33,980 bases of DNA, taken from assembly GCA_003648225.1 (NCBI GenBank), contig QMOL01000002.1:1-33980 (forward strand), read 5' to 3'. Every line of letters begins with the position of its first letter. The stretch's first letter is position 1. Shown here in pieces: positions 5,380-24,669 of this stretch. The notes beneath the pieces are model-generated. The model did no database searches and was not told the origin of the DNA. It saw nothing but the letters and a program-made list of their open reading frames with translations. The stretch is from Chlamydiota bacterium. GTDB lineage: Bacteria; Auribacterota; UBA3054; B51-G9. A program made the position numbers and the translations under genes.

Positions 5380-5435
5380 ATCTACTGTAATTGAAAGTAA
5401 TTATAAGTTAATCCTCATATTTGGAGAAATATAAA

Positions 5436-9776: not shown

Positions 9777-10928
9777 TCAATTGTCCGTTAAAGCTTTAAG
9801 AATATCGGAAGCGACCGGAGGGCAGCCTTTAACTAATTTATTATCTCCGCATTTTTTTATAGTGCAGTTTCCGACACACAAAGTCCCTTCCGGGATTACG
9901 TCATGCCCTTTTCCAATTGCGAATTTTAACGGAAGATAATCCGCTATGTCTTTATAATTACGCTTCAGAAACATTGTGAGTGTCGATACACAAGCACTGC
10001 ATGATTCACAATCAAGTACCTCAACTTTAGGAAAATTTAAACTGATTTCCTTAGGCGGTAATTCAAATGGCTTGATCCAGTCTCGCCAGTTTGAAGGGTC
10101 AATTGAAATATCATCAATTGAAATCGATTCTCCGGCGCGTTCGGCTGTAAGACGAAGATGCGGAATATCTTCCGGCTTAATTCCCATTATTGCTGCCGCA
10201 ACCGCATCGGCGGCAAAACAATTTGTTGACGCTAAAACTACATCAACTCTTTTCGGTGTGCCTGCGCTGGGACCAAGTCCCTCCAAGCCTAATGAACCAT
10301 CAATTAAAACGATATCAGGAATGAGAACTGTTGAAAGGTCAGCGATTGCAAGGTCAAGTGTTTTTTCATTTACGGGAGTTGAAGGTTGGGGGAGCTGATG
10401 AAGTCTGACTTTCTCTCTGCCTTTCAGGCAGCCTTTCATATTTTTAATGCTCAAAGTAACAACGCAGTGCATGTGAGTCTTCATCACCGGTATGGAAACT
10501 ATATAATCAAAATTGGTTATAGCACTTGATATTCGCGCAAAATTTAACACAACCGCATCCTTGATTTCTATTTTGTCGGCCGGAGCGGCATCAAGATCAA
10601 TCATGGGAATCCCACGCTTCTCAACTTCATCTGCTATACCTGTTGATTCGAGACATTCAAATGGAGTAACACCGAGAATTGTTCCTTCGCCAACAGTAAC
10701 TTCCGCACCAATTTTTTTAAAAAAATCGCAAGCTGCCGCCACAACATGTGGATTAGTAGTAATTGCTTTTCCCGGTTGAACCTTTCGTCCGGCATTAGGT
10801 TTAAGCAAAATTTTTTTACCGGATAAGTCAGGTAAATCTATCCTTTCGAGAACATTGATTGCGTTTGCGTAAGCGTTATTGCCATGACAAACAGCCACAA
10901 AATTATTATTTTTGATTTTAGTCTTCAT
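9777..10928 (-). CDS. DUF362 domain protein with C-terminal Cys-rich extension
   Basis: Contains KILLKPNAG and TLSIKNMKGCL, typical of DUF362, plus a C-terminal CESCSAC...CVGNC...C...GC. The ORF-track start at 10985 is a TTG. The first ATG (10928, MKTKIKNN...) is more plausible. Confidence 0.7.
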   Translation of the reverse strand: MKTKIKNNNFVAVCHGNNAYANAINVLERIDLPDLSGKKILLKPNAGRKVQPGKAITTNPHVVAAACDFFKKIGAEVTVGEGTILGVTPFECLESTGIADEVEKRGIPMIDLDAAPADKIEIKDAVVLNFARISSAITNFDYIVSIPVMKTHMHCVVTLSIKNMKGCLKGREKVRLHQLPQPSTPVNEKTLDLAIADLSTVLIPDIVLIDGSLGLEGLGPSAGTPKRVDVVLASTNCFAADAVAAAIMGIKPEDIPHLRLTAERAGESISIDDISIDPSNWRDWIKPFELPPKEISLNFPKVEVLDCESCSACVSTLTMFLKRNYKDIADYLPLKFAIGKGHDVIPEGTLCVGNCTIKKCGDNKLVKGCPPVASDILKALTDN

Positions 10929-11067
10929 AGTATTTATTATAACATAACCGACATTTTTTGTCGATTGCAACTTAAGACCGGACAATTATTCAATTAATAA
11001 TTAAAAAGGCTTTTTTTATTGATGTATTAAGGATTTTTTATTCGTAAAAAATAATAAACCAATCCCC

Positions 11068-11101
11068 GGAAAAAAAATTTGTCCCGATAAATCGGGACAA
11101 A
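11068..11101 (-). terminator. intrinsic terminator closing the lipoprotein operon
   Basis: The minus strand reads TTTGTCCCGA-TTTA-TCGGGACAAA (10-bp stem) followed by TTTTTTTT. It lies 64 nt downstream of the stop of the 430-aa gene. Confidence 0.7.
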
Positions 11102-11164
11102 TTTCCTCGCATTTCTCGACAACCATTTTCATTGTATCAACAAATTAATATCTTTATTTATCTT

Positions 11165-12457
11165 TTACTTTTTTACGGGTTTATCCTTTACTTCCTTTTT
11201 CACTTTATCTTTTGCTTTATCTTTTGCTTTATCTTTTGCTTTATCTTTTGCTTTATCTTTTGCTTTATCTTTTGCTTCATCTCCCCAGCCGAAATTAACG
11301 ATCGGAAAAACAGACAAAAAACCACTTTTATTAAAATTCAAAAGTCCAAGTTGAAATCCGGAGTCACATTTGTTGAATAATGCCAATTGTAGGCCGTTGA
11401 CAGTATCAGCTGTATTGAGAATACTTCCTATTTGTAAACCATTCACAATATCAGCAGCATTGCCAAGAGCACCAAGCTGTACCCCTTTAAGTTTTTCGCA
11501 AGTGCTAATGATTCCAATAGCTAAACCGAAGATATTGCTATTATAGGAGTACGGCATGCACAATTGCAAACCCCTAACATCAGTTTTCTCTGGATATAAG
11601 GATCCTGATGATTTTTTATTTAAACTCCCAACGCCAAACTGTAACGCTGTCCATTTTGCCTGATCGGTTAAATAGGGTACTTCTGAAAGATTAGTTGAAG
11701 TCGCTGTATCAAAGTTTAGAACAGGGCAAACCGGAAGAAAACCGCTTTTGTTAAAGTTTAACAGACCAAATTGGCATCCTGACCAAGCACGGTTAAAGCA
11801 GGCAAGCTGCAATCCATTCACTCTTTCTGCCTCATTCCAAAGCCCCGCGCATTGTAGGCCATTTACTTCTCCACTGAAATTTGCTAAGCCGCCTATCATC
11901 CCGCCATTTATTTTATTAGCACCAGCCACTAAACCACCAAATACTGCACCGGTTAATTCACCACCACCTGCCATTAAACCACCGAATACCACACCGACAC
12001 CCTCACCCATTGCCATCCCACCGCTAAGAGCTACACCGGTAAAATTTCTACCACTACCTGCCATTAAACCGCCAACCGCCACACCACTAACATTTTCATC
12101 GCCACCTGCCGCTAAACCGCCAAGAGCTACACCACTAACATCATTGCCACCTGCCGCTAAACCGCCAAAAGCAATACCCATGAGACGTTTGGAAAAAGCT
12201 ACTCCTCCAAAATCAATGCCATACATATTAACATCCTTGCCTCCCCACGGCATAGATAGCCGCATGCCGTATATGTTATAGTTAGTCGGGAAAGCGTGCA
12301 GCCATCGTAGATTATCCCATATAGAAATTTGCATCGGTGTCCATCCAGCACTTACTTTTTCATCGACATCATTTGTTGTTTGATTTGCCCATGCACTGCT
12401 AATGGTCAAAATAAATGCTATTACTATACTTGATATTATTTTTTTTCGTGTTGTCAT
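11165..12457 (-). CDS. secreted Gly-rich surface-repeat protein with C-terminal (AKDK)n tail
   Basis: Signal peptide ends ...SSAWA/N. It carries many GGL(A/M)AGG..(V/F)(S/T)GVA(L/V)GG and VNGLQ(L/I) repeats. Two modules each end QFGLLNFNKSGFL(P/S)V.P..NF. This resembles the Leptospira LA_2272-type surface-repeat family from memory only, which is a low-certainty match. Confidence 0.75.
   Translation of the reverse strand: MTTRKKIISSIVIAFILTISSAWANQTTNDVDEKVSAGWTPMQISIWDNLRWLHAFPTNYNIYGMRLSMPWGGKDVNMYGIDFGGVAFSKRLMGIAFGGLAAGGNDVSGVALGGLAAGGDENVSGVAVGGLMAGSGRNFTGVALSGGMAMGEGVGVVFGGLMAGGGELTGAVFGGLVAGANKINGGMIGGLANFSGEVNGLQCAGLWNEAERVNGLQLACFNRAWSGCQFGLLNFNKSGFLPVCPVLNFDTATSTNLSEVPYLTDQAKWTALQFGVGSLNKKSSGSLYPEKTDVRGLQLCMPYSYNSNIFGLAIGIISTCEKLKGVQLGALGNAADIVNGLQIGSILNTADTVNGLQLALFNKCDSGFQLGLLNFNKSGFLSVFPIVNFGWGDEAKDKAKDKAKDKAKDKAKDKAKDKVKKEVKDKPVKK
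11203..11286. repeat. 12-nt tandem repeat CTTTATCTTTTG x6 perfect plus 1 degenerate, encoding (AKDK)n
   Basis: Perfect copies run 11203-11274 and the degenerate copy is 11275-11286. The repeat is in-frame (12 = 4 codons) inside the 3' end of the 430-aa gene. Confidence 0.95.
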
Positions 12458-12489
12458 TTTTTCTCTCGTCTGTTTATTATTAGCTAATT

Positions 12490-12714
12490 TTAAGGTTTTA
12501 CATTTTTAAAGACTCTTAGCAAAGGATGGGCATCGGGATCTTTCTGTACAACACCAACAGTTACTGTTGAATTTAATAATTTTCCATTACCGTCATAATT
12601 GTACGTTGCATGTCGTTGATAAGTTGGATATGTGCAGCCGGTAATAAAAATTATAGCTGTTAAAGCTGTTAATGTTACAAACAATCTTAATGTTTTTTTC
12701 TTTTTGTCATTCAT
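12490..12714 (-). CDS. small lipoprotein (74 aa), unknown function
   Basis: Lipobox FITGC follows a basic, hydrophobic N-terminus. GGAGA sits upstream of the ATG. Confidence 0.7.
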   Translation of the reverse strand: MNDKKKKTLRLFVTLTALTAIIFITGCTYPTYQRHATYNYDGNGKLLNSTVTVGVVQKDPDAHPLLRVFKNVKP

Positions 12715-12745
12715 AATTCTCTCCTTAAGTTAAAGTTATATTATT

Positions 12746-13393
12746 TTACTTTACAGAAATATCTTCCGATTTATAGTGTACAAGAGCATCGCTCTTCCCA
12801 CTTACAAGCCTGGATACTTCTCCGGTTCCTCTTTTAACAATAGACGGCAAGCCATCTTTTCTTGGATACGCGGTAACTCTGATTTTTATAATCCCTTCGT
12901 AATAAACATCAGGACTTCCCAAAAGTCCCCAAAGAATAGATGATCCCTTTGTAAGTTTATCAACACCACTTGTTTCAAGAGCAACAACAACTCTATAATC
13001 CGTATCAGGAATAATTGATTTAGTGGGTACAAACTCTATTTTGCTGTTTTTGCTGTAAACAGGTAGATTTTCATAAGATACAGGAAGAACTATCCCTCCA
13101 CTTTCAGCTATTTTACTCGCAACGCTGTCAACCACATAATCATAAAGCGCGCTTTCTGGCAGACAGCCCACAACTTCCATATAAACTTTTTTTGATTTCA
13201 ATTTAGGAAATGACAAATTTTTTACCGCGATTGATGTAGCCTCAGCGAAGAGAGATTGCTGCGAAGCATAATTAGGAATTATTCCCGCATAAGTTTTCAT
13301 AGGCATAAGCCGATAATTAACCGCACAGCCTGTAAAAATAATAATAGTAATAATTGTAATACAAGAAAATTTAATTGTTCTTAGAATGTTCAT
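12746..13393 (-). CDS. lipoprotein (215 aa), unknown function
   Basis: Lipobox IFTGC, with GGAGA upstream. I recognise no motif. Confidence 0.75.
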   Translation of the reverse strand: MNILRTIKFSCITIITIIIFTGCAVNYRLMPMKTYAGIIPNYASQQSLFAEATSIAVKNLSFPKLKSKKVYMEVVGCLPESALYDYVVDSVASKIAESGGIVLPVSYENLPVYSKNSKIEFVPTKSIIPDTDYRVVVALETSGVDKLTKGSSILWGLLGSPDVYYEGIIKIRVTAYPRKDGLPSIVKRGTGEVSRLVSGKSDALVHYKSEDISVK

Positions 13394-13480
13394 AATAGTC
13401 TTTCTCCTTAATGTTTATTGATTGTTAAAAATTTTCGGCACATTGTATTTAATCACCGAAACCGGATATCAGTTAATGCT

Positions 13481-14440
13481 TTATCTTTCGTCAGATAGAA
13501 TTATACGGCAATATGATTTTCCTCTCATCGCCCTACTTCTTAATGCTCTATATTTATAAGTTTTTACTTTTGATGTTTTATTTCTTAATGTATGAACAGA
13601 AATAGCTGCTGCTATTTTAAGTTTAGTCATTTTCGGTTTATTTTCCATAAAATTTGTGTCAACACTTCTAAACGGAATATTTAATTGTTCTTCTTTCGCT
13701 CCTATTGTATCATCAATAAGCCTCATTTGTCTTTCATATTCTGTTAAAGCAGGCTCATATTTTAGTGTTTCATCGTACTTACATGCTTCAACAACCAGCA
13801 TTGTACCTAAAACTATAAAAGGCGGTGATGCCGGACTTCCAATAATACTAACAATCAGCCCGCCTGCGGTAGCATATGAAGCAACCGCGCCGGCGATAAA
13901 ACCTGCGATTTGTTCTTCGCGATATTTTCTACTCATATTTAAAATACCTTTCAACTCATTTATTTCTCCTTTTGTCAACAAGTTTTCTTTAGCATTGTTT
14001 AGCATATTTTCAAAATCATCATACAATTCAGGAATATAATCAATACCGCGAAAGTGGCATTCTTTAGCCGGTCTGTAAATATACCCGTTTGGGATTTTGT
14101 GTAAATCTTCCAAAAGAAAGTCCCAGTTTGCTGTAACTAACCTGCCTGATTTATTTTTATAAACCACAGGTTCAATTAAAACACCGTATTTATTCCCTGA
14201 CTTATCTTTATGAACGAACAAATACGGATAAAAAGGGTTATCGATTTCTCTCAATAATTTTTCAGGAAATTTTACGATATTGTAGAAACGATGTGTATAA
14301 AAACCTTTTCCCCATAAAAATCTGTTAGCGCCAATGAATTTTGTTTCTAAAGTCACATTCTCTTCTGAAAAAGCAATCTTTGCCTGTCCGAAAATTAATA
14401 ATAGAAAAATAAAATAACATATTTTAAACTTGTCTCTCAT
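13481..14440 (-). CDS. secreted/membrane protein (319 aa) with internal Gly/Ala-rich hydrophobic hairpin
   Basis: Signal peptide ends ...KIAFS/E. The hydrophobic segment reads IAGFIAGAVASYATAGGLIVSIIGSPASPPFIVLGTMLVV. Confidence 0.7.
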   Translation of the reverse strand: MRDKFKICYFIFLLLIFGQAKIAFSEENVTLETKFIGANRFLWGKGFYTHRFYNIVKFPEKLLREIDNPFYPYLFVHKDKSGNKYGVLIEPVVYKNKSGRLVTANWDFLLEDLHKIPNGYIYRPAKECHFRGIDYIPELYDDFENMLNNAKENLLTKGEINELKGILNMSRKYREEQIAGFIAGAVASYATAGGLIVSIIGSPASPPFIVLGTMLVVEACKYDETLKYEPALTEYERQMRLIDDTIGAKEEQLNIPFRSVDTNFMENKPKMTKLKIAAAISVHTLRNKTSKVKTYKYRALRSRAMRGKSYCRIILSDER

Positions 14441-14452
14441 GACTTTTCCCCG

Positions 14453-14863
14453 TTACTTTTTATTATATAGCCAGTTAGTAACTCCAATACCCATAATAAT
14501 ATCATCATATTCTTTTGTTCCCGGTGTTGGAGGAGTTAAACAATGACCGCCAAAAGCGACATGAGGTCCATTTTCACACAATCCGTTACAACCGCCCCGA
14601 CAGCCGTGATTTTCCCAGACTATCCCAAACTCTTTATATGCTTTTATCAATTCTTCATCATCATCCCGTGGCATAGATAAATCACACCCTCCGTAAATAA
14701 ATGGTTTGGCATCCGGGATTGGCGGTGAGCCGTCAAAACAATATTTAGGCGCGGAATCCGGAGTTATAGGGTATGGTTCAAAGGTTCCGCGTTCAACAAC
14801 AGTTGTGCACGCGAAGCCTAAGAAAGAAATAATTATTAATAGAAAAAGTTTTATGTATTTCAT
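14453..14863 (-). CDS. Cys-rich lipoprotein (136 aa)
   Basis: Signal sequence plus an FLGFAC lipobox-like site. Seven further Cys include HGCRGGCNGLCENG. Its ATG lies 2 nt after the stop of the upstream gene. Confidence 0.7.
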   Translation of the reverse strand: MKYIKLFLLIIISFLGFACTTVVERGTFEPYPITPDSAPKYCFDGSPPIPDAKPFIYGGCDLSMPRDDDEELIKAYKEFGIVWENHGCRGGCNGLCENGPHVAFGGHCLTPPTPGTKEYDDIIMGIGVTNWLYNKK

Positions 14864-14865
14864 AG

Positions 14866-16290
14866 TTAAAAAATTGTAAGGTTATCTACTTCATTCTCTT
14901 TCCAAAAAGCCGGAGCTAACGGAATAATTCTAATATCTGATTCTTCATCAACAGGGTCAATTTCAAGATAATGTCGAGAGCTTATTTGCGAATCAACAAT
15001 ACTGCTGCTAACCTCTTCAGTTTCAAATTTATATTTCCCGAAATGGTCAAAAGTAGTTCGGCAATAAATTAAATTATCATCCTTTTTTATAGGATAATAA
15101 TAATAAACCTGCCGCCATTCAGGTAATTCCGCATTAGAAGAAGAGTAAAAACATACAGCAATATTGTGAAATCCGGGTTCAATGTCAAGACTTCCTACTC
15201 CTATATCCTCTGGTAATAAATCCCATACACGAACATCCGCTTCGGTTCGTACTGCCGCGCCGGCAACAAGTGCTGCTCCTATTCCTGCAGCTGTTGCTGC
15301 GGCTCCGTTTCCTTTAGTAGCAATCAGAACTCCTGTAAACGCTCCTGCGAAAGCGCAGACTCTAACAGTCCATTTTGCACCAATTTTAATTTTTTGGATT
15401 GTCTCGGCAGTTTTTTCTGTATTACACGAAAGTTGACAAAAAGTAGAAGTGCATCTATTAATTTGTATTTTTTCATTACCGTCAACGAATATTTTAGCGT
15501 ATTCAATTTTAGAGCTTCTTGGAATATATTCTGCAAATGCCGAGCATGACCATATATCTTTAATATTATTTTCTCGCTGTTTAAGCGGGCTATCCCCCCA
15601 TTCAACAATAAAGATAGTATTATCAGAATCTATTCCATTTCTTTTGTTTTCATAGTTGTCATTATTTTCATCATTAACTACGACTTCTTCTTCATCAGTA
15701 TCATCAATTTTTTCTTCGATTTCGTTTACAAATTTACTTTTTTGAATATAAGTATCTGCGGTATCCGGTTCACCAAGTAAATAATTACATCTTGCCGCCA
15801 TAACATAGCCGGCAGAGAAATCGGAAGTATCATCTTTATTTAAGCTCATAGTATCTTTATCGGCATCAATTCCTCGACGGAAAGCTGCAAGAGCTTTTTC
15901 ATAATCACCTCGGCGATAATGAATAATTCCGCGATACCAATGACACATTGAGCGTTCAAATGGCTCGCCTTTAAATTCTTTAAAATCTTCTCTGGAGACG
16001 GAAGACCAAAAAGCGTTATCGGAACCGGTAACGGTTCGCTCCATCACTTTCCCGGCATTTAAAAACGGAAGGAAAGCGAGATCGTATCCTCCGCCGGTAA
16101 AATAAAATTGTCCAAGTTTTGCGTTATTTAAAGCAAAATTTCTATTTAGTTTATCTGCACATGGACGTGATAGTTTTGCGGCTTTGCCAAAATCATTCAT
16201 ATAGAAAGCATCTTCAGCTTCTTTTGGAATTTGTGCCGCGCAACCTGCCAGTAAGAATAGAATTAATATTATTAAGATTTTATTTATCAT
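14866..16290 (-). CDS. lipoprotein (474 aa) with TPR-like helical region, acidic linker and glycine-zipper-like segment
   Basis: Lipobox LLAGC. The TPR-like segment reads HWYRGIIHYRRGDYEKALAAFRRGID. The acidic run reads EEKIDDTDEEEVVVNDENNDNYE. The Gly/Ala zipper reads AFAGAFTGVLIATKGNGAAATAAGIGAALVAGAAV. Confidence 0.75.
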   Translation of the reverse strand: MINKILIILILFLLAGCAAQIPKEAEDAFYMNDFGKAAKLSRPCADKLNRNFALNNAKLGQFYFTGGGYDLAFLPFLNAGKVMERTVTGSDNAFWSSVSREDFKEFKGEPFERSMCHWYRGIIHYRRGDYEKALAAFRRGIDADKDTMSLNKDDTSDFSAGYVMAARCNYLLGEPDTADTYIQKSKFVNEIEEKIDDTDEEEVVVNDENNDNYENKRNGIDSDNTIFIVEWGDSPLKQRENNIKDIWSCSAFAEYIPRSSKIEYAKIFVDGNEKIQINRCTSTFCQLSCNTEKTAETIQKIKIGAKWTVRVCAFAGAFTGVLIATKGNGAAATAAGIGAALVAGAAVRTEADVRVWDLLPEDIGVGSLDIEPGFHNIAVCFYSSSNAELPEWRQVYYYYPIKKDDNLIYCRTTFDHFGKYKFETEEVSSSIVDSQISSRHYLEIDPVDEESDIRIIPLAPAFWKENEVDNLTIF

Positions 16291-16304
16291 TTTTATTATT
16301 TTAT

Positions 16305-16868
16305 TTATCTGTTTATTGGTTCATATTTACCATAATATTTATATTCATCATCATCACACCATACAATCCCACCTGTTTTGGCATCGGTAAGTCGAAATGA
16401 CAATCTGTAATATACTTCCCGACCTCCTCCTTTACGAATAGAATCGGCATAAGCCCGTCCGGTAAGAAAATAATCCACATTCATCAATTTAGCGATTTCC
16501 TTTCTTTTTTCCAAATCACTTCCTGATAAGTTATTTATTATTTCCGGGAATTGTTTTCTGTCAATAAATTCAAAATTATTACTTGCTATAAGCTCCTTTC
16601 TGATTTGGGAAAGCAGGTTATATGAATCGAATGTATCGTCAAAAGTTCTGTTTTCAACTTTCATAAAGACAATTCTTAGCGGTTTGTCTTTAGAACTTAT
16701 TTTACTTTTAGCAATTGATCTTGACATTTTTTGAGCCGTAGCTTTTAAATCCGTTACAGTTAAATCTGTGTCTATTATTAGATTGTCATCAAGACCCATC
16801 CGCGTTTCCGGAGGAGTACATCCGTTAAGACAGATTAAAATTATAAAAATATATATTAGAAATTTCAT
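16305..16868 (-). CDS. LpoB-like (COG3417-type) lipoprotein, paralog 1
   Basis: Lipobox LNGC. The core reads VENRT...DSYNLL..IR..L....F.F.DR...DYFLTG...YYRLSFRLTDAKTGGIVW. This matches the E. coli LpoB C-domain pattern (VNNRT...LRNAL...YVLYS...LQMQLMLVQTGEIIW). Confidence 0.7.
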   Translation of the reverse strand: MKFLIYIFIILICLNGCTPPETRMGLDDNLIIDTDLTVTDLKATAQKMSRSIAKSKISSKDKPLRIVFMKVENRTFDDTFDSYNLLSQIRKELIASNNFEFIDRKQFPEIINNLSGSDLEKRKEIAKLMNVDYFLTGRAYADSIRKGGGREVYYRLSFRLTDAKTGGIVWCDDDEYKYYGKYEPINR

Positions 16869-17010
16869 ATTTGTTTTTTGTTTTGTTATTTGTGATATCC
16901 GTGTCTAACTTTTTTGACACTGATTACACTGATTTACACTGACTTTATAATTTTTTTAATTTAAATAATTTCTTTTCCGTGAATATCTGTGATATCCGTG
17001 TCTGTATTTT
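16869..17010. repeat. intergenic spacer module, copy 1
   Basis: Block order: TTGTTTTTTGTTTTGTTATTTGTGA, then TTTTTTGACACTGATTACACTGATTTACACTGA, then TTTTTTTAATTTAA, then TTCTTTTCCGTGAATATCTGTGATATCCGTGTC. The same order recurs at 20095-20220. Confidence 0.85.
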
Positions 17011-17020
17011 TTGGTTGTTC

Positions 17021-17584
17021 TCATTCCACCGGAAGATACTTTTTCACTTCATAATCATCTTCCCAGACTACCCGGCCATCTTTTGTATCAACAAGTCGAA
17101 AAGAGAGTCTGTAATTTTTTGATTCTCCTGAGCTATCGCTCTGGTCATCACAAAAAGCTGTTCCGGTAAGGAAATAATCAATACCGAGCAATTTTTTCAA
17201 TTCTTTATAGTTCTCATTATTAATTTTTCTCCAACGCTTTTCAGCAACAATTCGATTAATTGATGCCCGATCAACAAACTGTAATTTCCGGTTACTATTT
17301 TCCAGAATCAACTGTCGAATTTTGTCAAGCAGATTATAAGAATCAAAATCTAAATCTCCGGTACGATTTTCTATAACTGCAAATCCTATTATCGTGGGTT
17401 TATTAGATGAAATGTTAGCTGATGTAACTATTGATCGTGCCATTTGCTGCGATGTGGAACGCAAGTCAGTTGAACTCAGATGTGTATCAAGAATAGCGTC
17501 TTCATCAAGTCCTTTTTTTTCCGCGGTACCGCAAGAGAAAATTATAAGACAACAAAAAAGAGAAGTAATTATTTTTAAATTCAT
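17021..17584 (-). CDS. LpoB-like lipoprotein, paralog 2
   Basis: Lipobox IFSC. Shares IENRTGDLDFDSYNLL, DYFLTG and YRLSFRLVDTKDGRVVWEDDYE with paralogs 1 and 3. Confidence 0.7.
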   Translation of the reverse strand: MNLKIITSLFCCLIIFSCGTAEKKGLDEDAILDTHLSSTDLRSTSQQMARSIVTSANISSNKPTIIGFAVIENRTGDLDFDSYNLLDKIRQLILENSNRKLQFVDRASINRIVAEKRWRKINNENYKELKKLLGIDYFLTGTAFCDDQSDSSGESKNYRLSFRLVDTKDGRVVWEDDYEVKKYLPVE

Positions 17585-17792
17585 AGTTTTTTGGTTAAGT
17601 TTAATTTTTGATACTAATTTAATGGGGAAGTTAAAAGCTTTTTTTTAGATAATTCATTTGCATTTTTATTGATATATCGGAACAAATTTTTTACTTATAT
17701 TTTCTTATGCGGTTAAGTTATTTCGTAGTTTCTGTGCCTGAGTATACGTTATATCCCCCAATATTCCATGAGTAAAAACTTCGTGGTTTGTT

Positions 17793-18194
17793 TTATTCTT
17801 CTCCACCAACCCAATCTGCCTGCCAAACATAATCAGGAAAACTTTCCTGATTATAAAAAGAATTTCCAAGTGAGCCAAAAGTAATTAAATCTATACTACC
17901 AGAACCAAACCGACCAAGAGTGTAAAAAGGCCCCTTCACTGCACCTGTTAATACGCCAAGTCCCGGCAAAACTATAAAGTTATCATTAATCATATTGCGG
18001 GGGATTTCAAGCCAGCAGGTTAAAATATTTACTATTCCGCGACTAAACGCTTCGTCGCGTTTGACATAAGTCCTTTCAACTCCGCTTTTGGTTTCAACCT
18101 GCGAACTGACAGTATCAAGACTTTGCTCGGCAACGACATAATTTGTTCCGCCCAAAACACATGATACAACGATCCATACTAATATTTTTTTCAT
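17793..18194 (-). CDS. TIGR04073-type (exosortase-system-associated family) small secreted protein
   Basis: 133 aa with a signal peptide. Contains SRGIVNILTCWLEIPRNM, G..KG...TLGR...G..DL.TF and PDYVW. This matches my recollection of the TIGR04073 family signature. Confidence 0.55.
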   Translation of the reverse strand: MKKILVWIVVSCVLGGTNYVVAEQSLDTVSSQVETKSGVERTYVKRDEAFSRGIVNILTCWLEIPRNMINDNFIVLPGLGVLTGAVKGPFYTLGRFGSGSIDLITFGSLGNSFYNQESFPDYVWQADWVGGEE

Positions 18195-18266
18195 TTCAAA
18201 CTCCTATTTTAATTTTTATTTTTCATACAAAAATAAACAAGTAATATATATTTTTTCATTTGGATT

Positions 18267-18347
18267 ATTATTTAGATCAATTAGGTCAATTAGGTTAATT
18301 AGAAATTCAGAAAGTAATCCATCAATCCATCAATTCATCAATTCATA
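18267..18347. repeat. 9-nt array AG(A/G)T(C/T)AATT x3 (18274-18300) plus 8-nt array AAT(C/T)CATC x4 (18316-18347)
   Basis: agatcaatt aggtcaatt aggttaatt, and aatccatc aatccatc aattcatc aattcata. The first array duplicates the purH-proximal array. Confidence 0.9.
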
Positions 18348-18366
18348 CCGCACTAGGAAGCGCGGC

Positions 18367-18939
18367 TTACTCTATTCTTTTAAGTTCATAATCATCTTCC
18401 CAAACTACCGCGCCGTTAGCAGTATCAGTCAGTTTGAATGATAATCTGTAATAACTTGTTCGATTATCTACTCCCACTTGTCTGTCTTCAAATAAATACC
18501 CACCGAGCAGAAAATCGGCACCGGCAAATTTTCCGGCTGTACCGGTTACCGTCCCATCTTCTTTCATTCTGTTTTCATTAAGGATTCGTTTTGTAACTCC
18601 TGCAGACCGATCCAAAAACACAATATTTAAGGATCCGTTTTTCAGTAAATTTTTTCTTATATTGTATTGCAGGTTTTTAGCATCAACACCTTTGTATGTT
18701 TTATCTTCAACACCTGTAAAAGATATTTTTGGCTGTGAACCATCTGTTGGATTAAGTGCTCTGCATGCTGCAAGTGATCTTGCCATTTTATTCACTGTTG
18801 CCCGTAAATCATCAGCTTTTAAATCTGAGTTTAAAACTTGTTCTTCATCAATAGCCACACGGGTAGTTCGCGGACCGCCTGAAGCGCATCCTTGCAATAT
18901 TACCATTACGATAATATTTATCAATAAAAATGTTTTCAT
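18367..18939 (-). CDS. LpoB-like lipoprotein, paralog 3
   Basis: Lipobox LQGC. Contains VEDKTYKGVD, DFLLGG and YYRLSFKLTDTANGAVVWEDDYE. Confidence 0.7.
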   Translation of the reverse strand: MKTFLLINIIVMVILQGCASGGPRTTRVAIDEEQVLNSDLKADDLRATVNKMARSLAACRALNPTDGSQPKISFTGVEDKTYKGVDAKNLQYNIRKNLLKNGSLNIVFLDRSAGVTKRILNENRMKEDGTVTGTAGKFAGADFLLGGYLFEDRQVGVDNRTSYYRLSFKLTDTANGAVVWEDDYELKRIE

Positions 18940-19017
18940 AAATATTCTCCAAGTTAAATTAAAAAACTCTCTTTTGAGTTTTGTTATTTGTTATTTGAAT
19001 TTTGCTATTTTAGAATA

Positions 19018-20094
19018 TTATTCGATAAAGTCCTTTGGTATAAATGTTCCTGTAAACGGTATTATTCTATCCCCGCGCTGTATTCTTTTCGTTTCTGATT
19101 CTATCATTGCGATACTGTATCCGGGATAAACTTCCGTAACGCGAAGCAACCCTATTTTCAGTTCCGCGTGGCCGAGAGATCTTCCTGTTTCCGGGTCAAT
19201 CAAATCTCTTGCACTGGCATTTGCACCCATATCCCGAACAACAAAGAAGCGGTCGTTTTTCAGCACTCCTTCTTTTTGACCTGCGGAAAGGTAAACTTTA
19301 ATAACAGTTTTTGTGCGTTTTTTCCCTGTTAACATTTCCTGTTCATACTCTTCCTTGTTTTGAGATGAATCGGAAATAAAACCACCTTGTGCCGCTCCGC
19401 TACGAAGAACATCTTTACCCGGTTTATACGCTTCTATCCTAATAATTCGCGCGTACCAAGCGTTATCACCAAGTCGATTCAATACTTTTGAAATTGCCGC
19501 TTCTATAGTTTCATATCTGTCTGCTTTTCGCGCACGACCGGTAATAACTTCTCCGGTTCTAATATCAAATAGTCGTACCCGAACGATAAAATTATCTCCG
19601 CTTTTATTCCAACTTGCCGTAAGATAATAATGAATACCAAGAATCGGCTTGTCCTGATTTTTTACATCGGAAGCTACTATTCCGTTATCCTGCAAACTAC
19701 GCTCATTTAAAATTGATCGCAGTTTCGCCCGCTCGATGACATTAACTTTTTCCGTGTCATCAACCGCGCAGACCAAATCATCGAAGAAATCTTCTTGTGG
19801 AGTATCAAAATTAAATGTAAGATTTGATACAACAGGACTTGTTCCGCTTTTCAACAAAATTTCAAACCAGTTTTTGGGCAGAACAGCAATATTATATTTC
19901 ACCCGTTTAGTAACCGATGGAACAGTATTTTGAGCAGTTTTGGAATCGGTTTTCGGGGTTGTTATTTTTTTAGGAACTATTTTTTCAATTGATTTCTGTT
20001 TTAATGGCGTAGCAGGCTTATTTGTTTTAACCGCAAATAAAAAATTCGCTGTTAGAACAAAAACCGTACAAAAAATTATAATGGATAGTTTCAT
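19018..20094 (-). CDS. secreted protein (358 aa): Pro/Lys/Thr-rich linker, CsgG/LpoB-like core, C-terminal beta-domain reminiscent of FlgT_C
   Basis: Has a signal peptide. The core reads YNIAVLP...VNVIERAKLRSILNE...HYYLTASW...VRVRLFDIRTGEVITG. The C-terminus reads VIKVYLSAGQKEGVLKNDRFFVV...IGLLRVTEVYPGYSIAMIES...IQRGDRI. Domain naming is by pattern only. Confidence 0.6.
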   Translation of the reverse strand: MKLSIIIFCTVFVLTANFLFAVKTNKPATPLKQKSIEKIVPKKITTPKTDSKTAQNTVPSVTKRVKYNIAVLPKNWFEILLKSGTSPVVSNLTFNFDTPQEDFFDDLVCAVDDTEKVNVIERAKLRSILNERSLQDNGIVASDVKNQDKPILGIHYYLTASWNKSGDNFIVRVRLFDIRTGEVITGRARKADRYETIEAAISKVLNRLGDNAWYARIIRIEAYKPGKDVLRSGAAQGGFISDSSQNKEEYEQEMLTGKKRTKTVIKVYLSAGQKEGVLKNDRFFVVRDMGANASARDLIDPETGRSLGHAELKIGLLRVTEVYPGYSIAMIESETKRIQRGDRIIPFTGTFIPKDFIE

Positions 20095-20346
20095 TTTTTT
20101 GTTTTGTTATTTGTGAAATTTGTTTTTTTTGACACTGATTTACACTGATTTTATATTTCTTTTTTTTAATTTAATCTTTTCTTTTCCGTGAGTATCCGTG
20201 ATATCCGTGTCGGCATTTTTTTTACACTGATTTCACTGATTTCACTGATTTACACTAATTTTAATAATTCTTGGTTTATATAATGCAAAGTTTTTAAATT
20301 TATTTATTTCCGTGAATATCCGTGATATCCGTGTCGGCATTTTTTT
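20095..20346. repeat. intergenic spacer module, copy 2 (20095-20220) and partial copy 3 (20221-20346)
   Basis: Both copies contain CACTGATTT arrays followed by TTCCGTGA(G/A)TATCCGTGATATCCGTGTCGGCATTTTTT. Copy 2 also shares the GTTTTGTTATTTGTGA leader with copy 1. Confidence 0.9.
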
Positions 20347-20743
20347 ATTTCGCGTATCTTATACTTATCACATAATCAACAGGTTTATCCGATAAAGAAT
20401 TCGACTCGAAAGTATAGATTTCATAATGACCGAGAACAACCGGCATCCAATTAGTTTCATCAACAAAGAAATTATCTTTATCTTTAAAGCGAACTTTTAC
20501 TTGTAAGGGTAAAGATTTATCTGTTTGATTTTTAATTTGTGCTTCGACTTTCAGCAGACCATTTGCTAATCGGCTACTCCGTAATCCGGTTATGGTAATA
20601 TCATCCTGTAATTTGTCGTCCATTAAAACAACTTTTTCTGTAACTTCAAGAGCATTATCTTCACGCGTTGCTGTATAAGGACCAACACACGAAGACAGGA
20701 AAACTACCATTGCCATACTTAATAATAAGATTATTTTCATCAT
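20345..20743 (-). CDS. YcfL-like (DUF1425-type) lipoprotein
   Basis: 132 aa, lipobox LSSC. The beta-rich body reads LLKVEAQIKNQTDKSLPLQVKVRFKDKDNFFVDETNWMPVVL...DYVISIRY. This parallels E. coli YcfL (..VTVHYRFYWYDARGLE...VRLYLYL). GGAG spacing favours the second Met (20740) as the start. Confidence 0.6.
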   Translation of the reverse strand: MMKIILLLSMAMVVFLSSCVGPYTATREDNALEVTEKVVLMDDKLQDDITITGLRSSRLANGLLKVEAQIKNQTDKSLPLQVKVRFKDKDNFFVDETNWMPVVLGHYEIYTFESNSLSDKPVDYVISIRYAK

Positions 20744-20810: not shown

Positions 20811-21059
20811 TTATTCATCGCGACAGGTGGAACATTGTTCACAAACTTCTATACCAAGTGCTTTGAACACGGCTTGCATTGTTCGATATGTAACTCCTAA
20901 ATCTCCTGTTTCCAGACGCGACAACGTTTTTCTGCTTATTCCCGCTTTAGCTGCTAGAAATTCCTGTGTCCAACCATATTTTTCTCTTAATCTCAAAACT
21001 TTTGAAACATAATTGCAAACAATGTTTTTATTTTTATGCATATTTTTATTTGATTTCAT
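20811..21059 (-). CDS. XRE-family helix-turn-helix regulator with C-terminal CxxCxxC
   Basis: 82 aa. The HTH reads WTQEFLAAKAGISRKTLSRLETG. The tail reads CEQCSTCRDE. Confidence 0.8.
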   Translation of the reverse strand: MKSNKNMHKNKNIVCNYVSKVLRLREKYGWTQEFLAAKAGISRKTLSRLETGDLGVTYRTMQAVFKALGIEVCEQCSTCRDE

Positions 21060-21410: not shown

Positions 21411-21488
21411 ATCTGTAAGATAATAAAATTATATTTTTTAATTAGTGGGAATTAGTGAAATCCGTGTCTAAGTTTTAAAATATCGAAG

Positions 21489-24452
21489 TTATTCCGCATT
21501 ACCATTGAGAATAAACGAACTCCAAAAAAAAGGATGGCAGAATTGTTTGGAGCTTTTCAATTGAATTTTTGCATTGAATAATGATTTAACAGGACTCTGT
21601 TTTTTATTTAAATTTTCATAAAATTGTTTCATTAATTCATTAGTCCCTTTGTCATCTATGCTCCAGAGAGACGCAACAACATTTCTCGCTCCGGCATAGA
21701 AAAAAGCGCGTGCAAGACCTGAAATGGATTCGTCATCACCACACTCAACTAATCCTGACTGGCAAGCGCTTAAAACGATAATATCAGCATTAAGGTTCAG
21801 GTTAAAAATTTCGCTCATTTTCAGAAAACCATCGTTCTCTTTATCACCGTAAATTGACAGCACAAGACAAGGTTCAGCAAAACCTTTAATTTGTCCGGGT
21901 AATATTCCATGAACAGCGAAATGAATATATTTATATTTATTGAGACCGCTGTTGTTATTCAGGCTTTTTAATATAGATTCGCTTGCTCGATTTTGAATAT
22001 AAATAAATTGCTTGTTATTGTTGCCGTAGAAAATACGTGAAATATATTCCACCTCCTTTTTTGTGGCAGGTAAAGGCTTTAAAGATATGTCCCCGTTACT
22101 CCCAAATTGCAATGATCGGGTTGCTATTCTATTATGAGTAATATCAAATGAAACAAGAGCATTTGCAATTTTATAAGAAGTTTTATTTAGAAATATAGAT
22201 ATTTTAGATTTTATAGCCTGCTCTTTTGTGTAAATCGGGTCTCCAACAAGAAGCGCCGGAAAACGTTTTTCTGATGACTGACAGTTAGTCTCAAGCATGA
22301 CCACGCTTTGCGTGTTACTTCGTGAGCGCCGGGCGCTTGCACGAGTTGATAGATGGTAGTTAATATTTAGTCTTTCATTTTTTTTGACTGCTCTGAGTAC
22401 CGTAGCAGAAGGAATATAAGCAAACTTAACATTATTCAACATATAATTTAATGTTGAGAATGAAGTGCCGTTGGTATTTGAAATAAGAGCCGAAAAAGGT
22501 ATAGCGGCAAGATTACCGTGTGGAACTATAAATATAGTTTTGGGATTATCATTTGTTATTTTCTCGGCAAAGGGTTGTAAAATTTGACTATACAAGTTAA
22601 AACTTGCAGATTTAAAATCACTTAATTTTGAAAGTGCACCGTGGAATTCAAGGGTATGACGAAAATTCGCAATAAGGTTATTTAGTCTTTCAGAAGAAAT
22701 TTTATGGGCAAGGAAATAAAAATTAGTTTTGCCAATGACAATAGCAAATAGATGCTCATTTCCAATCCAGTAGTTTACAAGGACTTCATTATTTTTTAAT
22801 ATTTTATTTTGCACCTGACTTACAGTAATAGGTTTAGGTTTTCTCAATTCAGAATAACGAGGGTATTTATTATCAAATTCAGTTTTAAGATTATTCAGCT
22901 TCGATCTTACATCCGACAGTTGCAGCTCAATATCCGCTATAAGGTTATTATCTTTTAATTGTTTCGGTTTGGCGATTTCGTTACGCATTCGTTTTTCGAG
23001 ACTTTGCTTTTTTACAATGAGTCTTCTTTCTCTTTTTTTATCTTTGGAAGTTAAATTACATCTTTTTGTAGCAGTAGCATTGTAGATTTGCTGAAGCAAT
23101 TTCCTTGACCGGGAGATTTCAGTTATCCAAAATGTTTTTTCAGCATAAACGTCAGCCAAATCAATAGTGTTTTTGAGCAACAATAATTCACATTCAAGAA
23201 AATCAGAACAACTTTTCTGCTGCTGCTTTCTAAGTGATTTAGAAAAATCTTCTCCACCGGCGGTAACGGTTGATAATTCGAGTATTTTTGTGCTTGAAAC
23301 AAATAACTTCACGGCCTTAACATAGTTTGTCTGCTTCACACATACACTTGCAAGTTTACCGATAATATTAGCGGTATTCGGATTACTTTTACCAAAAAGA
23401 AGTTTAGAGATTTTTAACGCTTTATTATATTCTCTTTCCGCGACATCATACTTTTCGAGTTTAAAATTAATATCGCCGAGCAAGACAATAGCCGACATAG
23501 TAGCTATATGGTTTAATGAATGGAATTCGAGTGCGGATTTGTAAGCCATTTCACCATATTTTTTAGCGAGCAGGTATTTTTTTTGAAGAAAATACAGATT
23601 TGCAATATTTCTTAAATTAAAGTTTTTGCCTTCTGAGGGGTAAGGTAGAGAATTATAAAAGTCAATATTTTCTAAATATATTTTTTCAGCTTTTTTATAT
23701 TTTTTTTGCTTTGAATAAATACCCGCGATCTTTGTTTTGATTTTACACGTGTCATGTGTTTTTTCTCCAATTAATGCTATTCGCATTTTCAAAGCGCGCT
23801 TTAAAAGTGGTTCTGCAGCTTCATAATTACCGATTGAACGGTAAAGCGAAGCGAGGTTATTCATTGATACGGTAAGTCGGTAAGCATTTGTATTTAATAT
23901 TTGTTTATAAATATCAAAAGCTTCTTTGTATAATTTTTCCGCCTCTGCGTATTTACTTTGAATATGATACAATAAAGCCTTATTATTTAAGTGATTAGCG
24001 GTACATAAATTTATTCTGCCAACTGCCTGCTCGATTGTTTTGATACCGTGATTATGGAAATGCTCTGATTTATCGTATTCGCCGATTAACCTGTAAACAT
24101 TACCGAGCCCGTAGTAAGTATCCGCGATCTCGATATGCGCATTTGTGTAAATTGTTTTACGAATATTCAGTGTTTTATAATAATAAGGAAGTTCCTCTTC
24201 ATATTTTCCGTTATAATAATACGACATAGCCATTTGATCGTAAAGATCCGCAATGTAGGCGTCATTAGTTCCTGTCTTTTGAATAGCCGCATCGAGTTTT
24301 TTTTGTATAATGTTTCTTCCTTCGTTAAATTTACCTTTATTATATAATACTTTAAGTTCATTTTTGAACTCTTCTGTTACTCGTTCGGCAAAAGATACCG
24401 GTGCGAAAAGTAAAAAAATTAATAATAATATTTGGTAATATTTTGAAATCAT
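21489..24452 (-). CDS. exported TPR-repeat / CHAT-domain caspase-like protease
   Basis: From the internal Met there is a signal peptide, MISKYYQILLLIFLLFAPVSFA/E. Multiple TPR-like repeats follow (Y..G.Y..A...Y..AL periodicity), then a basic coiled-coil-like middle. The C-terminal CHAT domain has a His (YIHFAVHG) and Cys (IVLSACQSG) dyad. The ORF-track start at 24503 would lie inside the candidate promoter. Confidence 0.8.
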   Translation of the reverse strand: MISKYYQILLLIFLLFAPVSFAERVTEEFKNELKVLYNKGKFNEGRNIIQKKLDAAIQKTGTNDAYIADLYDQMAMSYYYNGKYEEELPYYYKTLNIRKTIYTNAHIEIADTYYGLGNVYRLIGEYDKSEHFHNHGIKTIEQAVGRINLCTANHLNNKALLYHIQSKYAEAEKLYKEAFDIYKQILNTNAYRLTVSMNNLASLYRSIGNYEAAEPLLKRALKMRIALIGEKTHDTCKIKTKIAGIYSKQKKYKKAEKIYLENIDFYNSLPYPSEGKNFNLRNIANLYFLQKKYLLAKKYGEMAYKSALEFHSLNHIATMSAIVLLGDINFKLEKYDVAEREYNKALKISKLLFGKSNPNTANIIGKLASVCVKQTNYVKAVKLFVSSTKILELSTVTAGGEDFSKSLRKQQQKSCSDFLECELLLLKNTIDLADVYAEKTFWITEISRSRKLLQQIYNATATKRCNLTSKDKKRERRLIVKKQSLEKRMRNEIAKPKQLKDNNLIADIELQLSDVRSKLNNLKTEFDNKYPRYSELRKPKPITVSQVQNKILKNNEVLVNYWIGNEHLFAIVIGKTNFYFLAHKISSERLNNLIANFRHTLEFHGALSKLSDFKSASFNLYSQILQPFAEKITNDNPKTIFIVPHGNLAAIPFSALISNTNGTSFSTLNYMLNNVKFAYIPSATVLRAVKKNERLNINYHLSTRASARRSRSNTQSVVMLETNCQSSEKRFPALLVGDPIYTKEQAIKSKISIFLNKTSYKIANALVSFDITHNRIATRSLQFGSNGDISLKPLPATKKEVEYISRIFYGNNNKQFIYIQNRASESILKSLNNNSGLNKYKYIHFAVHGILPGQIKGFAEPCLVLSIYGDKENDGFLKMSEIFNLNLNADIIVLSACQSGLVECGDDESISGLARAFFYAGARNVVASLWSIDDKGTNELMKQFYENLNKKQSPVKSLFNAKIQLKSSKQFCHPFFWSSFILNGNAE

Positions 24453-24504
24453 TAGCTTTTGTTTGTGTTTAGGATTGGTACTAATGTTATGCCAAATTTG
24501 CAAT

Positions 24505-24530: not shown

Positions 24531-24646
24531 CCACGGAAGGTTTTTACCTATTTATTAAAAATCTTAACATAAAGTTATTTCTCCAAAATGATTAAAAAAA
24601 TATTATTTATTCACAAAAAATAATAAGCAAATGCCTGCAAATCAAA

Positions 24647-24669
24647 TTTGTCCCGATAATCGGGAGAAA
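24647..24669 (-). terminator. hairpin of the GTCCCGAT/ATCGGGA family, possible terminator of the anti-sigma gene
   Basis: The minus strand reads TTTC-TCCCGA-TTA-TCGGGA-CAAA followed by TTTGATTTG. About 37 nt are near-identical to the terminator at 11074-11110. Confidence 0.4.

Follow-up and report, generated by a model that had tools for sequence, protein, structure and literature searches.

A conserved eight-gene operon of exported proteins built around a widespread LpoB-like, TPR, and YcfL-like lipoprotein triad

Contig QMOL01000002.1 of a Chlamydiota bacterium (GTDB lineage Bacteria; Auribacterota; UBA3054; B51-G9; assembly GCA_003648225.1) was analyzed from position 1 to 33,980, and this whole 34-kb stretch of DNA is called the window here. 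From position 20743 down to 11165 it carries twelve open reading frames (ORFs) for exported proteins, which we number g1 to g12 in that direction. In shorthand, Y denotes the YcfL-like product of g1, L the LpoB-like products of g3, g5, and g6, and T the tetratricopeptide repeat (TPR) lipoprotein encoded by g7. The genes and the terminator that follows them are as follows (aa, amino acids; nt, nucleotides).

20345-20743, minus strand: g1 (Y), 132-aa YcfL/DUF1425-like lipoprotein, lipobox LSSC
19018-20094, minus strand: g2, 358-aa secreted protein, signal-peptidase-I leader, LpoB/CsgG-type core, FlgT_C-like end
18367-18939, minus strand: g3 (L1), 190-aa LpoB-like lipoprotein, lipobox LQGC
17793-18194, minus strand: g4, 133-aa TIGR04073-type small periplasmic protein, signal-peptidase-I leader
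17021-17584, minus strand: g5 (L2), 187-aa LpoB-like lipoprotein, lipobox IFSC
16305-16868, minus strand: g6 (L3), 187-aa LpoB-like lipoprotein, lipobox LNGC, directly 5' of the T gene
14866-16290, minus strand: g7 (T), 474-aa lipoprotein, lipobox LAGC, TPR-like domain plus beta-sandwich
14453-14863, minus strand: g8, 136-aa small Cys-rich lipoprotein, lipobox GFAC, closing the conserved block
13481-14440, minus strand: g9, 319-aa exported protein, signal-peptidase-I leader, lineage-specific
12746-13393, minus strand: g10, 215-aa lipoprotein, lipobox FTGC, lineage-specific
12490-12714, minus strand: g11, 74-aa lipoprotein, lipobox ITGC, lineage-specific
11165-12457, minus strand: g12, 430-aa secreted repeat protein, signal-peptidase-I leader, LA_2272 type
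11066-11104, minus strand: intrinsic terminator, 14-bp perfect stem (11075-11104), 2-nt loop, T8 tail

All twelve ORFs are on the minus strand, and no credible plus-strand gene lies between them. As read from the translations, lipoboxes are present in 8 of the 12 proteins (g1, g3, g5 through g8, g10, and g11), and g2, g4, g9, and g12 have signal-peptidase-I-type leaders. No enzyme domain was detected in any of the 12 proteins with Pfam and NCBIfam profiles. The spacers from g6 through g12 measure, in order, 14, 2, 12, 87, 31, and 32 nt from the ORF coordinates. The terminator hairpin starts 60 nt past the g12 stop codon, and a simple terminator scan overlooked it because its loop is just 2 nt. 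Rfam and tRNA scans of the region gave no matches. The initial annotation, made from the letters and the ORF list, had described twelve consecutive minus-strand ORFs, an export signal on each, no catalytic motif in any, and a strong terminator after the last, and all of this was recovered. Its family assignments (one YcfL-like protein, three LpoB-like proteins, a larger protein with the same core, a TIGR04073-type protein, and a TPR/glycine-zipper lipoprotein) were borne out by the profile searches. If ~30% of the proteins of a diderm bacterium are assumed to be exported, the chance of twelve successive exported proteins is roughly 1e-6; synteny, however, is the stronger argument against chance.

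A word-indexed search with g7 retrieved 24 relatives, and their contigs, together with that of a distant g2 relative, provided six independent metagenomic contexts (L002, L003/L004, L090/L091, L092, which is partial, L093, and L094). The order Y-2-L-4-L-L-T-8 (g1 to g8, 20743-14453) was kept in all six wherever the contig reaches, at amino acid identities to the window ranging from 82-95% (L002) down to 35-55% (L094); the identity of g2 drops to 42% among the syntenic relatives. Each of the eight genes is under purifying selection, with nonsynonymous to synonymous substitution ratios (dN/dS) against L002 of 0.05-0.12 (0.06 for g1). In L003, neighboring genes of the eight are separated by 2-73 nt. 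Export signals are also conserved: the lipobox cysteine is kept in g1, g3, g5, g7, and g8 of five relatives, and in g6 where the called start includes the leader, while the g2 leader is of the non-lipoprotein type in 5/5 relatives, as is that of g4 where the called starts are comparable. By contrast, the flanks of the block differ in every one of the six contexts. On the 5' side lie rplM-rpsI, a radical-SAM gene, or a helix-turn-helix (HTH) gene with a TPR-CHAT gene, and past g8, in the five contexts that extend there, AddB-like/UvrD-type helicase genes, folC, moaC, a methyltransferase gene, or tauE. The four distal genes g9 to g12 are missing from all six relatives. Iterative hidden Markov models (HMMs) over 89 loci found no homologue of g10 to g12 and matched g9 in the window's own contig only, and metagenome scans with g9 and with g12 returned no relatives. 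These results indicate that the conserved unit is 20743-14453 and that g9 to g12 are lineage-specific additions.

The proposal that the twelve genes make up one unit therefore does not hold; only g1 to g8 are conserved together. The gene-order comparison suggested with it has now been run, and random juxtaposition fails for these eight genes. Likewise, the tight operon of the distal seven genes (g6 to g12) stands as to its 2-87 nt gaps and its terminator, but it mixes the conserved g6 to g8 with the lineage-specific g9 to g12. The "six further exported proteins of unknown family" are indeed additional, but they are two conserved accessories (g4 and g8) and four orphans. The idea of an expanded core was right, in that L is triplicated and accessories are added. 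A lack of functional unity among the twelve, with g9 to g12 being unrelated, fast-evolving surface or exported proteins that landed behind the operon, is accordingly a probable account: beyond the absences just described, which extend to 94 loci and two metagenome scans, the 3' sequence differs in 5/5 contexts extending past g8. It has to be set against the g8-g9 gap of just 12 nt and a Gly/Ala-rich hairpin in g9 that is reminiscent of that of T. Further, the scan found no terminator-like hairpin in the g8-g9, g10-g11, and g11-g12 spacers, its minus-strand matches at 14546-14560, 13083-13099, and 12911-12929 fall inside coding sequence, and the strong terminator comes only after g12. Because of the 12-nt gap and the shared terminator, g9 to g12 are probably co-transcribed with the operon in this organism.

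Within the block, the hub candidate is T. Pfam detects a single above-threshold TPR_2 repeat in g7 (30.4 bits) together with a weak glycine-zipper match. Its AlphaFold 2 (AF2) model (predicted local distance difference test score, pLDDT, 70) predicts a TPR-like helical domain (residues 23-185), a disordered acidic insert peculiar to this protein (188-216), and a beta-sandwich (225-282 and 362-411) bearing a long Ala/Gly-rich helical hairpin (283-346). The T family shares the invariant motifs KxFKGEPxE...M...Y.G, DYxxAxxxF, VExGxxPxK, and ADxRxWxxLP, and by profile it comprises 4420 clusters (50% identity) at E ≤ 1e-3; stricter limits of 1e-10 and 1e-30 leave 1941 and 780, respectively. Pfam covers only the TPR part of this otherwise nameless family; the C-terminal domain lacks a Pfam family, and no structure has been solved for the T family. 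In sequence and profile searches of the PDB, T was matched over its TPR part only. Foldseek of the g7 model against the PDB returned only TPR proteins, such as MamA, OGT, and KLC; the search was confined to the whole chain, and for that reason the C-terminal beta-sandwich and hairpin were left unmatched. A second word-indexed search with a broad T alignment added few new sequences, none of them a Campylobacter or Helicobacter entry. Ten long T-family members contained extra TPRs and one domain fusion, and no L-T fusion. In the domain fusion (P0136, 787 aa), PG_binding_1 and caspase (Peptidase_C14) domains are joined N-terminally to the T domain, a single-protein hint that T may work near peptidoglycan.

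We then examined T loci across bacteria. A one-genome-per-species scan for T (GTDB, 185,579 species genomes) yielded 80 loci in Planctomycetota, Alpha-, Beta-, and Gammaproteobacteria, Desulfobacterota, Nitrospinota, Myxococcota, Sumerlaeia, and others. An L gene lies directly upstream of the T gene and co-oriented with it in 66 of the 80, and the full L-T-Y order is present in 49/80. Any L was found in 76/80 loci and any Y in 66/80; an L-L-T arrangement occurs in 11/80, mainly in Phycisphaerae and Tepidisphaerales. The window, where T-family, LpoB-like, and DUF1425 genes are co-oriented in one cluster, belongs with these triad loci. These results indicate that the triad is an ancient, widespread, enzyme-free envelope module. 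No T relative above 30% identity was found among the species genomes; since none of the 80 T loci exceeds 28% identity, the source lineage has no close representative in that collection.

The classical triads, as in Magnetospirillum, Sphingomonas, Phenylobacterium, Alcanivorax, and Phycisphaerae, contain the same three families, place L before T as in g6-g7, and have lipoboxes on most T proteins, as g7 does. They differ from the window in that T identity is 22-28% and Y stands at the end of the cluster instead of at its start. They also often carry two partners, D and U, that are undetectable within the window, whereas g2, g4, and g8 are specific to the window's clade. Judged from gene order and homology, the operon in the window is best described as a remodeled triad in which Y was shifted to the front, triplication gave three L genes, and g2, g4, and g8 were added. 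As to the two partners themselves, D is a secreted protein of ~290 aa encoded downstream of Y in 60/94 loci, and U is a lipoprotein of ~200 aa with a Gly-rich segment encoded upstream of L in 23 loci; neither has a Pfam family, and their loci lie within L008-L089 (for example, L008 11873-12724 and L008 8743-9336). A by-eye likeness of D to an LpoB-core protein or a g2 equivalent was unsupported (hhalign probability <1%).

The three L proteins scored well above the PF13036 (LpoB) gathering score of 22.3 bits (g3, 60.6; g5, 52.4; g6, 65 bits). With the TIGR02722 equivalog model, however, they reached only 64.9, 60.6, and 63.5 bits against a cut-off of 110.55, and 34/34 triad L proteins tested likewise matched it far under the cut-off (best E, 1e-19). 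In PDB searches, the L profile matched LpoB (4q6l, 4q6z, and 2mii) at E = 5e-6 to 6e-5, with 4q6l the best (5e-6), and weakly matched 5t11 and 5t10 (E = 0.015-0.025; 0.015 for 5t11), which are dodecameric PelC-like structures (PMC13631591). The lipid-anchored cysteine is at residue 17-18 and the Pfam domain begins at 40-44, leaving at most ~22 residues between them; this stretch is conserved among orthologues (e.g., GLDDNLIIDTDL). The matching domain in 2mii begins at chain residue 69. E. coli LpoB has a disordered linker of ~50 residues that lets it reach PBP1b across the periplasm. On the basis of the sub-cut-off TIGR02722 scores and the lack of a long disordered linker, g3, g5, and g6 are classed as homologues of the LpoB globular domain and not as LpoB orthologues. 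Pairwise identity is 44% between g5 and g6 and 32-35% between g3 and either of them (32% for g5). The triplication appears to be old, because positional orthologues of all three genes exist in every syntenic relative.

With DUF1425/YcfL (PF07233), g1 scored 26 bits against a gathering score of 28.3 (E = 8.5e-6), the alignment covering profile positions 3-95 of 96. The L094 orthologue of g1 carries an unmarked PF07233 match, as does the L007 Y protein, and 15/31 Y proteins homologous to g1 match DUF1425 at E ≤ 1e-3. The g1 gene opens the conserved block in L002, L003, L090, L093, and L094. In the PDB, the Y profile matched only 3o0l, weakly (E = 0.047), and searches with g1 and with g12 gave no matches.

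The larger protein g2 belongs to a small family, with 8 members among 5.8 billion proteins. Its core (residues ~102-184) scored 22.8 bits with CsgG (PF03783; gathering score, 20.8), but the match spans a 57-residue stretch (profile positions 42-97 of 210), short of a full-length CsgG, and the window contains no curli genes (csgE, csgF, csgA, or csgB). With the LpoB-like profile, the middle domain gave an hhalign probability of 89% (E = 2e-6). The C-terminal beta domain (~267-345) scored 19.2 bits with FlgT_C, below the gathering score of 27; FlgT_N and FlgT_M were unmatched in Pfam, and g2 is not counted as a FlgT. A relative of g2, P0191, bears a precomputed PF16538 match, and the g2 profile weakly matched a "LysM domain-containing protein" chain of PDB 6ve2 (E = 1.2), which we take to be TsaP of the PilQ complex.

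Two smaller proteins complete the block. The g4 protein scored 45.4 bits with TIGR04073 (exosortase system-associated; cut-off, 50; E = 6e-12); the window has no exosortase gene, and g4 is kept between L1 and L2 in 6/6 relatives. The g8 protein had no Pfam or NCBIfam match. Its gene begins 2 nt past the T gene and adjoins it in L002-L007 and L090-L094, even at loci with a T of just 29-41% identity. In L005 and L006 (T 41% identical to g7), T and a g8 homologue stand together beside housekeeping genes. The T-g8 pair may thus be a sub-module in its own right.

The combination of a TPR lipoprotein, a YcfL-like protein, and an LpoB-like protein that the initial annotation named for Campylobacter does exist. 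In C. jejuni, cj0089 (453-aa TPR lipoprotein), cj0090 (122 aa), and cj0091 (207 aa) are transcribed together. The Cj0089 protein is found mainly in the inner-membrane fraction and Cj0091 in the outer-membrane fraction, and a cj0091 mutant shows poor adherence and colonization (PMC3100323). Cj0091 and its Helicobacter counterpart HP1457 are LpoB homologues, and in enterohepatic Helicobacter hp1457 adjoins hp0018, the homologue of cj0089 (PMC11394524). Deletion of hp0018 leads to hypervesiculation and less helical cells, and HP0018 co-precipitates the peptidoglycan hydrolases AmiA and MltD (PMC11394524). The sizes of ~450, ~120, and ~200 aa match those of T (441-474), Y (132), and L (187-190), and that set, like the one described here, contains no enzyme; its phenotypes concern vesiculation, cell shape, and adherence. 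The order differs, being T-Y-L in Campylobacter and Y-2-L-4-L-L-T-8 here, with three L genes plus g2, g4, and g8. By analogy, cj0089-91 and HP0018/HP1457 appear to be studied examples of the triad. The searchable literature yielded no account of the triad's breadth across phyla, the size of the T family, or the eight-gene form. The view of the locus as an undescribed unit is thus upheld for the eight-gene form but not for the three-gene core, which is already described in C. jejuni.

Compared with E. coli LpoB, the L proteins share the globular domain (PF13036; 4q6l) and the lipid anchor, and a YcfL-family gene lies in the same cluster, as in E. coli, where ycfL is the neighbor of lpoB. They differ in their equivalog scores, in the missing long linker, and in occurring as three paralogues plus a secreted fourth protein. 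A TPR partner is also present here, and we know of none for LpoB in E. coli. PelC/PelB, CsgG, PqiC, and FlgT, which work beneath the outer membrane, share, by weak profile matches, the broad LptE/PelC/CsgG-type alpha/beta fold class, and the pairing of a TPR protein with a lipoprotein of this fold recalls PelB-PelC (PMC13631591). Unlike those systems, the locus has no porin or beta-barrel, no CsgG-type transmembrane hairpins, and no polysaccharide, curli, MCE, or flagellar genes.

On the observed gene content, export signals, homologies, synteny, and purifying selection we build the following model, to which we give slightly better than even credence: the eight-gene operon would be a lineage-specific enlarged L-T-Y module acting as an outer membrane-peptidoglycan scaffold, with g9 to g12 as lineage-specific genes that share its terminator. 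Since none of the proteins is an enzyme, the module would act by binding. It would be a periplasmic scaffold placed where the outer membrane meets peptidoglycan, with T as a lipid-anchored hub whose TPR domain binds partners and recruits or restrains cell wall remodeling factors. The LpoB-fold subunits would be lipid-anchored adaptors docking on T or on its clients. DUF1425 domains are immunoglobulin-like (Ig-like), and Y would be a small accessory of this fold. In this lineage, L would have been triplicated and g2 (with its LpoB-type core and FlgT_C-like end), g4, and g8 recruited, and the multiplied LpoB-fold subunits would give a larger or hetero-oligomeric assembly. Its output, after the HP0018 phenotypes, would be control of cell wall remodeling and outer-membrane attachment.

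Several points weigh against this scaffold model. Physical interaction, localization, and function in this lineage are extrapolated from the sequence. Size, lipoprotein nature, a TPR motif, and operon partners are the only features by which Cj0089 and HP0018 appear to belong to the T family. Adherence was unaffected in the cj0089 mutant (PMC3100323), and the HP0018 partners come from one co-immunoprecipitation with in silico support only (PMC11394524). The T-g8 pair also stands apart from the other components at some loci: no L or Y gene was found near it in L005 (10 kb upstream and ~1.2 kb downstream, to the contig end) or in L006 (5.5 kb on either side). The architecture of g2 is drawn from weak profile hits because its AF2 model, with an 8-sequence alignment, failed (pLDDT 36). 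Finally, the T hairpin is fairly hydrophobic in this clade, but family-wide it is Ala/Gly/Ser-rich and mostly small and polar; a membrane anchor or transmembrane hairpin was considered and could not be called, the hydrophobicity being too low in most members.

An alternative is that g2, g3, g5, and g6 form a hetero-oligomeric, PelC/CsgG/PqiC-like ring under the outer membrane that docks on the TPR protein, like PelC on the TPR-porin PelB, and passes a polymer, lipid, or surface protein (e.g., g12) to or across the outer membrane. This reading is attractive because the LpoB-fold subunits are multiplied, and L duplication recurs elsewhere, as the L-L-T loci attest. The weak matches of the L profile to 5t11 and 5t10, the CsgG, FlgO, and FlgT_C sub-hits in Pfam (g5 gave weak FlgO and CsgG matches), and the exported LA_2272-type repeat protein downstream (g12) fit it as well. 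PqiC-, CsgG-, and PelC-type lipoproteins with this alpha/beta core are homo-oligomeric rings, and the Vibrio alginolyticus structure 3W1E ("flagellar") is among the fold matches (PMC13631591). The best-matching solved structure of the L proteins, however, is LpoB itself. LpoB is a monomeric adaptor, which counts against a ring. No beta-barrel, porin, MCE, glycosyltransferase, or ATP-binding cassette (ABC) component is found in or beside the block in the six contexts, and since g9 to g12 are not conserved, they cannot be an obligatory cargo. We regard the ring as unlikely, and the same low estimate applies to its bolder form, an undescribed envelope machine in which g2 and the three L lipoproteins would make a hetero-oligomeric ring under the outer membrane organized by T. 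If this bolder form were true, the L-T-Y triad would represent a new class of periplasmic assembly at its most minimal, and enterobacterial LpoB would be a derived, T-less offshoot.

Activation of cognate class A penicillin-binding proteins (PBPs) by the L paralogues in the manner of LpoB, with T and Y as modulators, is also improbable in our judgment. The PF13036 scores, the match to the globular domain of E. coli LpoB, and the ycfL-lpoB adjacency in E. coli speak for it. The uniformly sub-cut-off TIGR02722 scores, the short stretch behind the anchor in place of a ~50-residue linker, and the spread of the triad over many phyla speak against it; to our knowledge, only some Gammaproteobacteria possess UB2H, the docking domain of PBP1b. 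The 34-kb window contains no PBP gene. The same role has been proposed by the authors for HP1457 (PMC11394524). A flagellar or secretin periplasmic ring of the FlgT/FlgO/FlgP H-ring or TsaP type, which the FlgT_C (19 bits), P0191 PF16538, g5 FlgO, and 6ve2 LysM-chain (presumably TsaP) matches would favor, is very improbable, as all of these matches are below threshold, flagellar, pilus, and secretin genes are absent from the window and the six contexts, and the triad is found in a wide variety of genomes, with housekeeping neighbors where the genes of the loci are listed. A curli-like channel is likewise rated less likely than the scaffold.

The region also has features outside the conserved genes.

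20811-21059, minus strand: XRE-type HTH protein, 82 aa, 67 nt 5' of g1 (HTH_3, 49 bits)
16888-17012, minus strand: composite intergenic repeat between g5 and g6, with two more copies between g1 and g2 (20124-20345)

The HTH protein is a possible regulator, but its linkage to the block is inconsistent: a homologue lies 5' of the block in L002 and none does in L090 and L091, where rplM-rpsI precede it. Farther 5', 750 nt from the operon, a separate TPR-CHAT (caspase-like) protein is encoded at 21489-24503. A link between TPR-CHAT genes and T loci elsewhere was rejected, as the matches in L036, L045, and L065 are confined to the TPR region.

On the coding strand, the composite repeat reads GACACGGATATCACGGATAYTCACGGAAA (GACACGGATATCAC...), followed ~30-45 nt on by 2-3 tandem copies of AAATCAGTG(T). 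Two copies are present in the g1-g2 spacer and one plus a partial copy in the g5-g6 spacer, and a degenerate copy closely follows the TPR-CHAT gene (21451-21476). The two motifs occur far above shuffle expectation (6 matches vs 0.35 and 5 vs 0.10). The repeat accounts for spacers that are larger here than in relatives (23-73 nt in L003). It could be a repetitive extragenic palindromic (REP)-like element, a miniature inverted-repeat transposable element (MITE)-like element, or an operator array. Two relatives have a small PD-(D/E)XK_3 (PF13366) gene between the second and third LpoB-like genes (L002 6798-7169; L090 8804-9184 and L091 6959-7339). Because this insert and the repeat in the window occupy the same junction, the operon appears to contain an insertion hot spot there.

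Other repeats were seen. The g3-g4 spacer (18230-18346) contains tandem 9-mers (TTAGGTCAA, 3.4 copies) and 8-mers (AATCCATC, 3.9 copies), and the 9-mer array with its flank resembles 2068-2149 downstream of purH (74% identity over 73 nt); these arrays form a second putative family of dispersed intergenic repeats. The g12 terminator region (11020-11090) is 77% identical over 71 nt to 24589-24659, which lies upstream of the TPR-CHAT gene; the match takes in the AAATTTGTCCCGATAA hairpin arm, and the region looks like a repeated terminator or REP element. A near-identical A-rich leader, CACAAATAACAAAACAAAAAA, precedes the starts of g6, g3, and g2 (16874-16898, 18972-18996, and 20095-20119). These leaders have no Shine-Dalgarno motif, whereas g4 has AGGAG, which suggests unusual translation initiation or duplication of the leader along with the genes.

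Among the distal genes, g9, g10, and g11 had no Pfam or NCBIfam match. The internal Gly/Ala-rich hydrophobic hairpin of g9 (residues ~178-217, IAGFIAGAVASYATAGGLIVSIIGSPASPPFIVLGTMLVV) resembles the T hairpin in character, but no sequence homology between the two was detected. The g12 protein passes the NCBIfam threshold for LA_2272_repeat on one repeat (25.1 bits vs 25), while VC2662_fam (36 bits vs 140) and the LA_2272 lipoprotein N-terminal model are far under their cut-offs. It carries GGLAAGG/VNGLQ repeats, a (KDKA)n tail, and an internal duplication in which GLLNFNKSGFL...NF occurs twice. In the DNA, GGLAAGG-type repeats recur with a 48-nt period at 12020-12172, and (KDKA)n is encoded by a 12-nt tandem array at 11203-11282 that could vary by slippage. 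Elsewhere in the window, 5421-7991 encodes an 856-aa fusion of flavodiiron-type metallo-beta-lactamase, flavodoxin, rubredoxin-like, and NAD(P)H:rubredoxin-oxidoreductase-type modules; together with the RACo (28826-30502) and DUF362 (9777-10985) genes, it suggests that the low-GC host of this metagenomic contig (ENA ERZ27227322) is anaerobic.

By its fixed association with LpoB-like and YcfL-like partners, T marks out a common envelope module that contains no enzyme; the experimental data on it come from Campylobacter and Helicobacter and are limited to phenotypes of adherence, vesiculation, and cell shape. The enlarged form described here separates the modular parts, namely L, which can multiply, and g2, g4, and g8, which can be added, from the proposed hub, T. 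LpoB has been treated as a gammaproteobacterial invention. The present analysis finds LpoB-type domains in an older and much wider three-gene setting, and it offers testable hypotheses for how outer-membrane lipoproteins may communicate with the cell wall in bacteria without the E. coli Lpo system.

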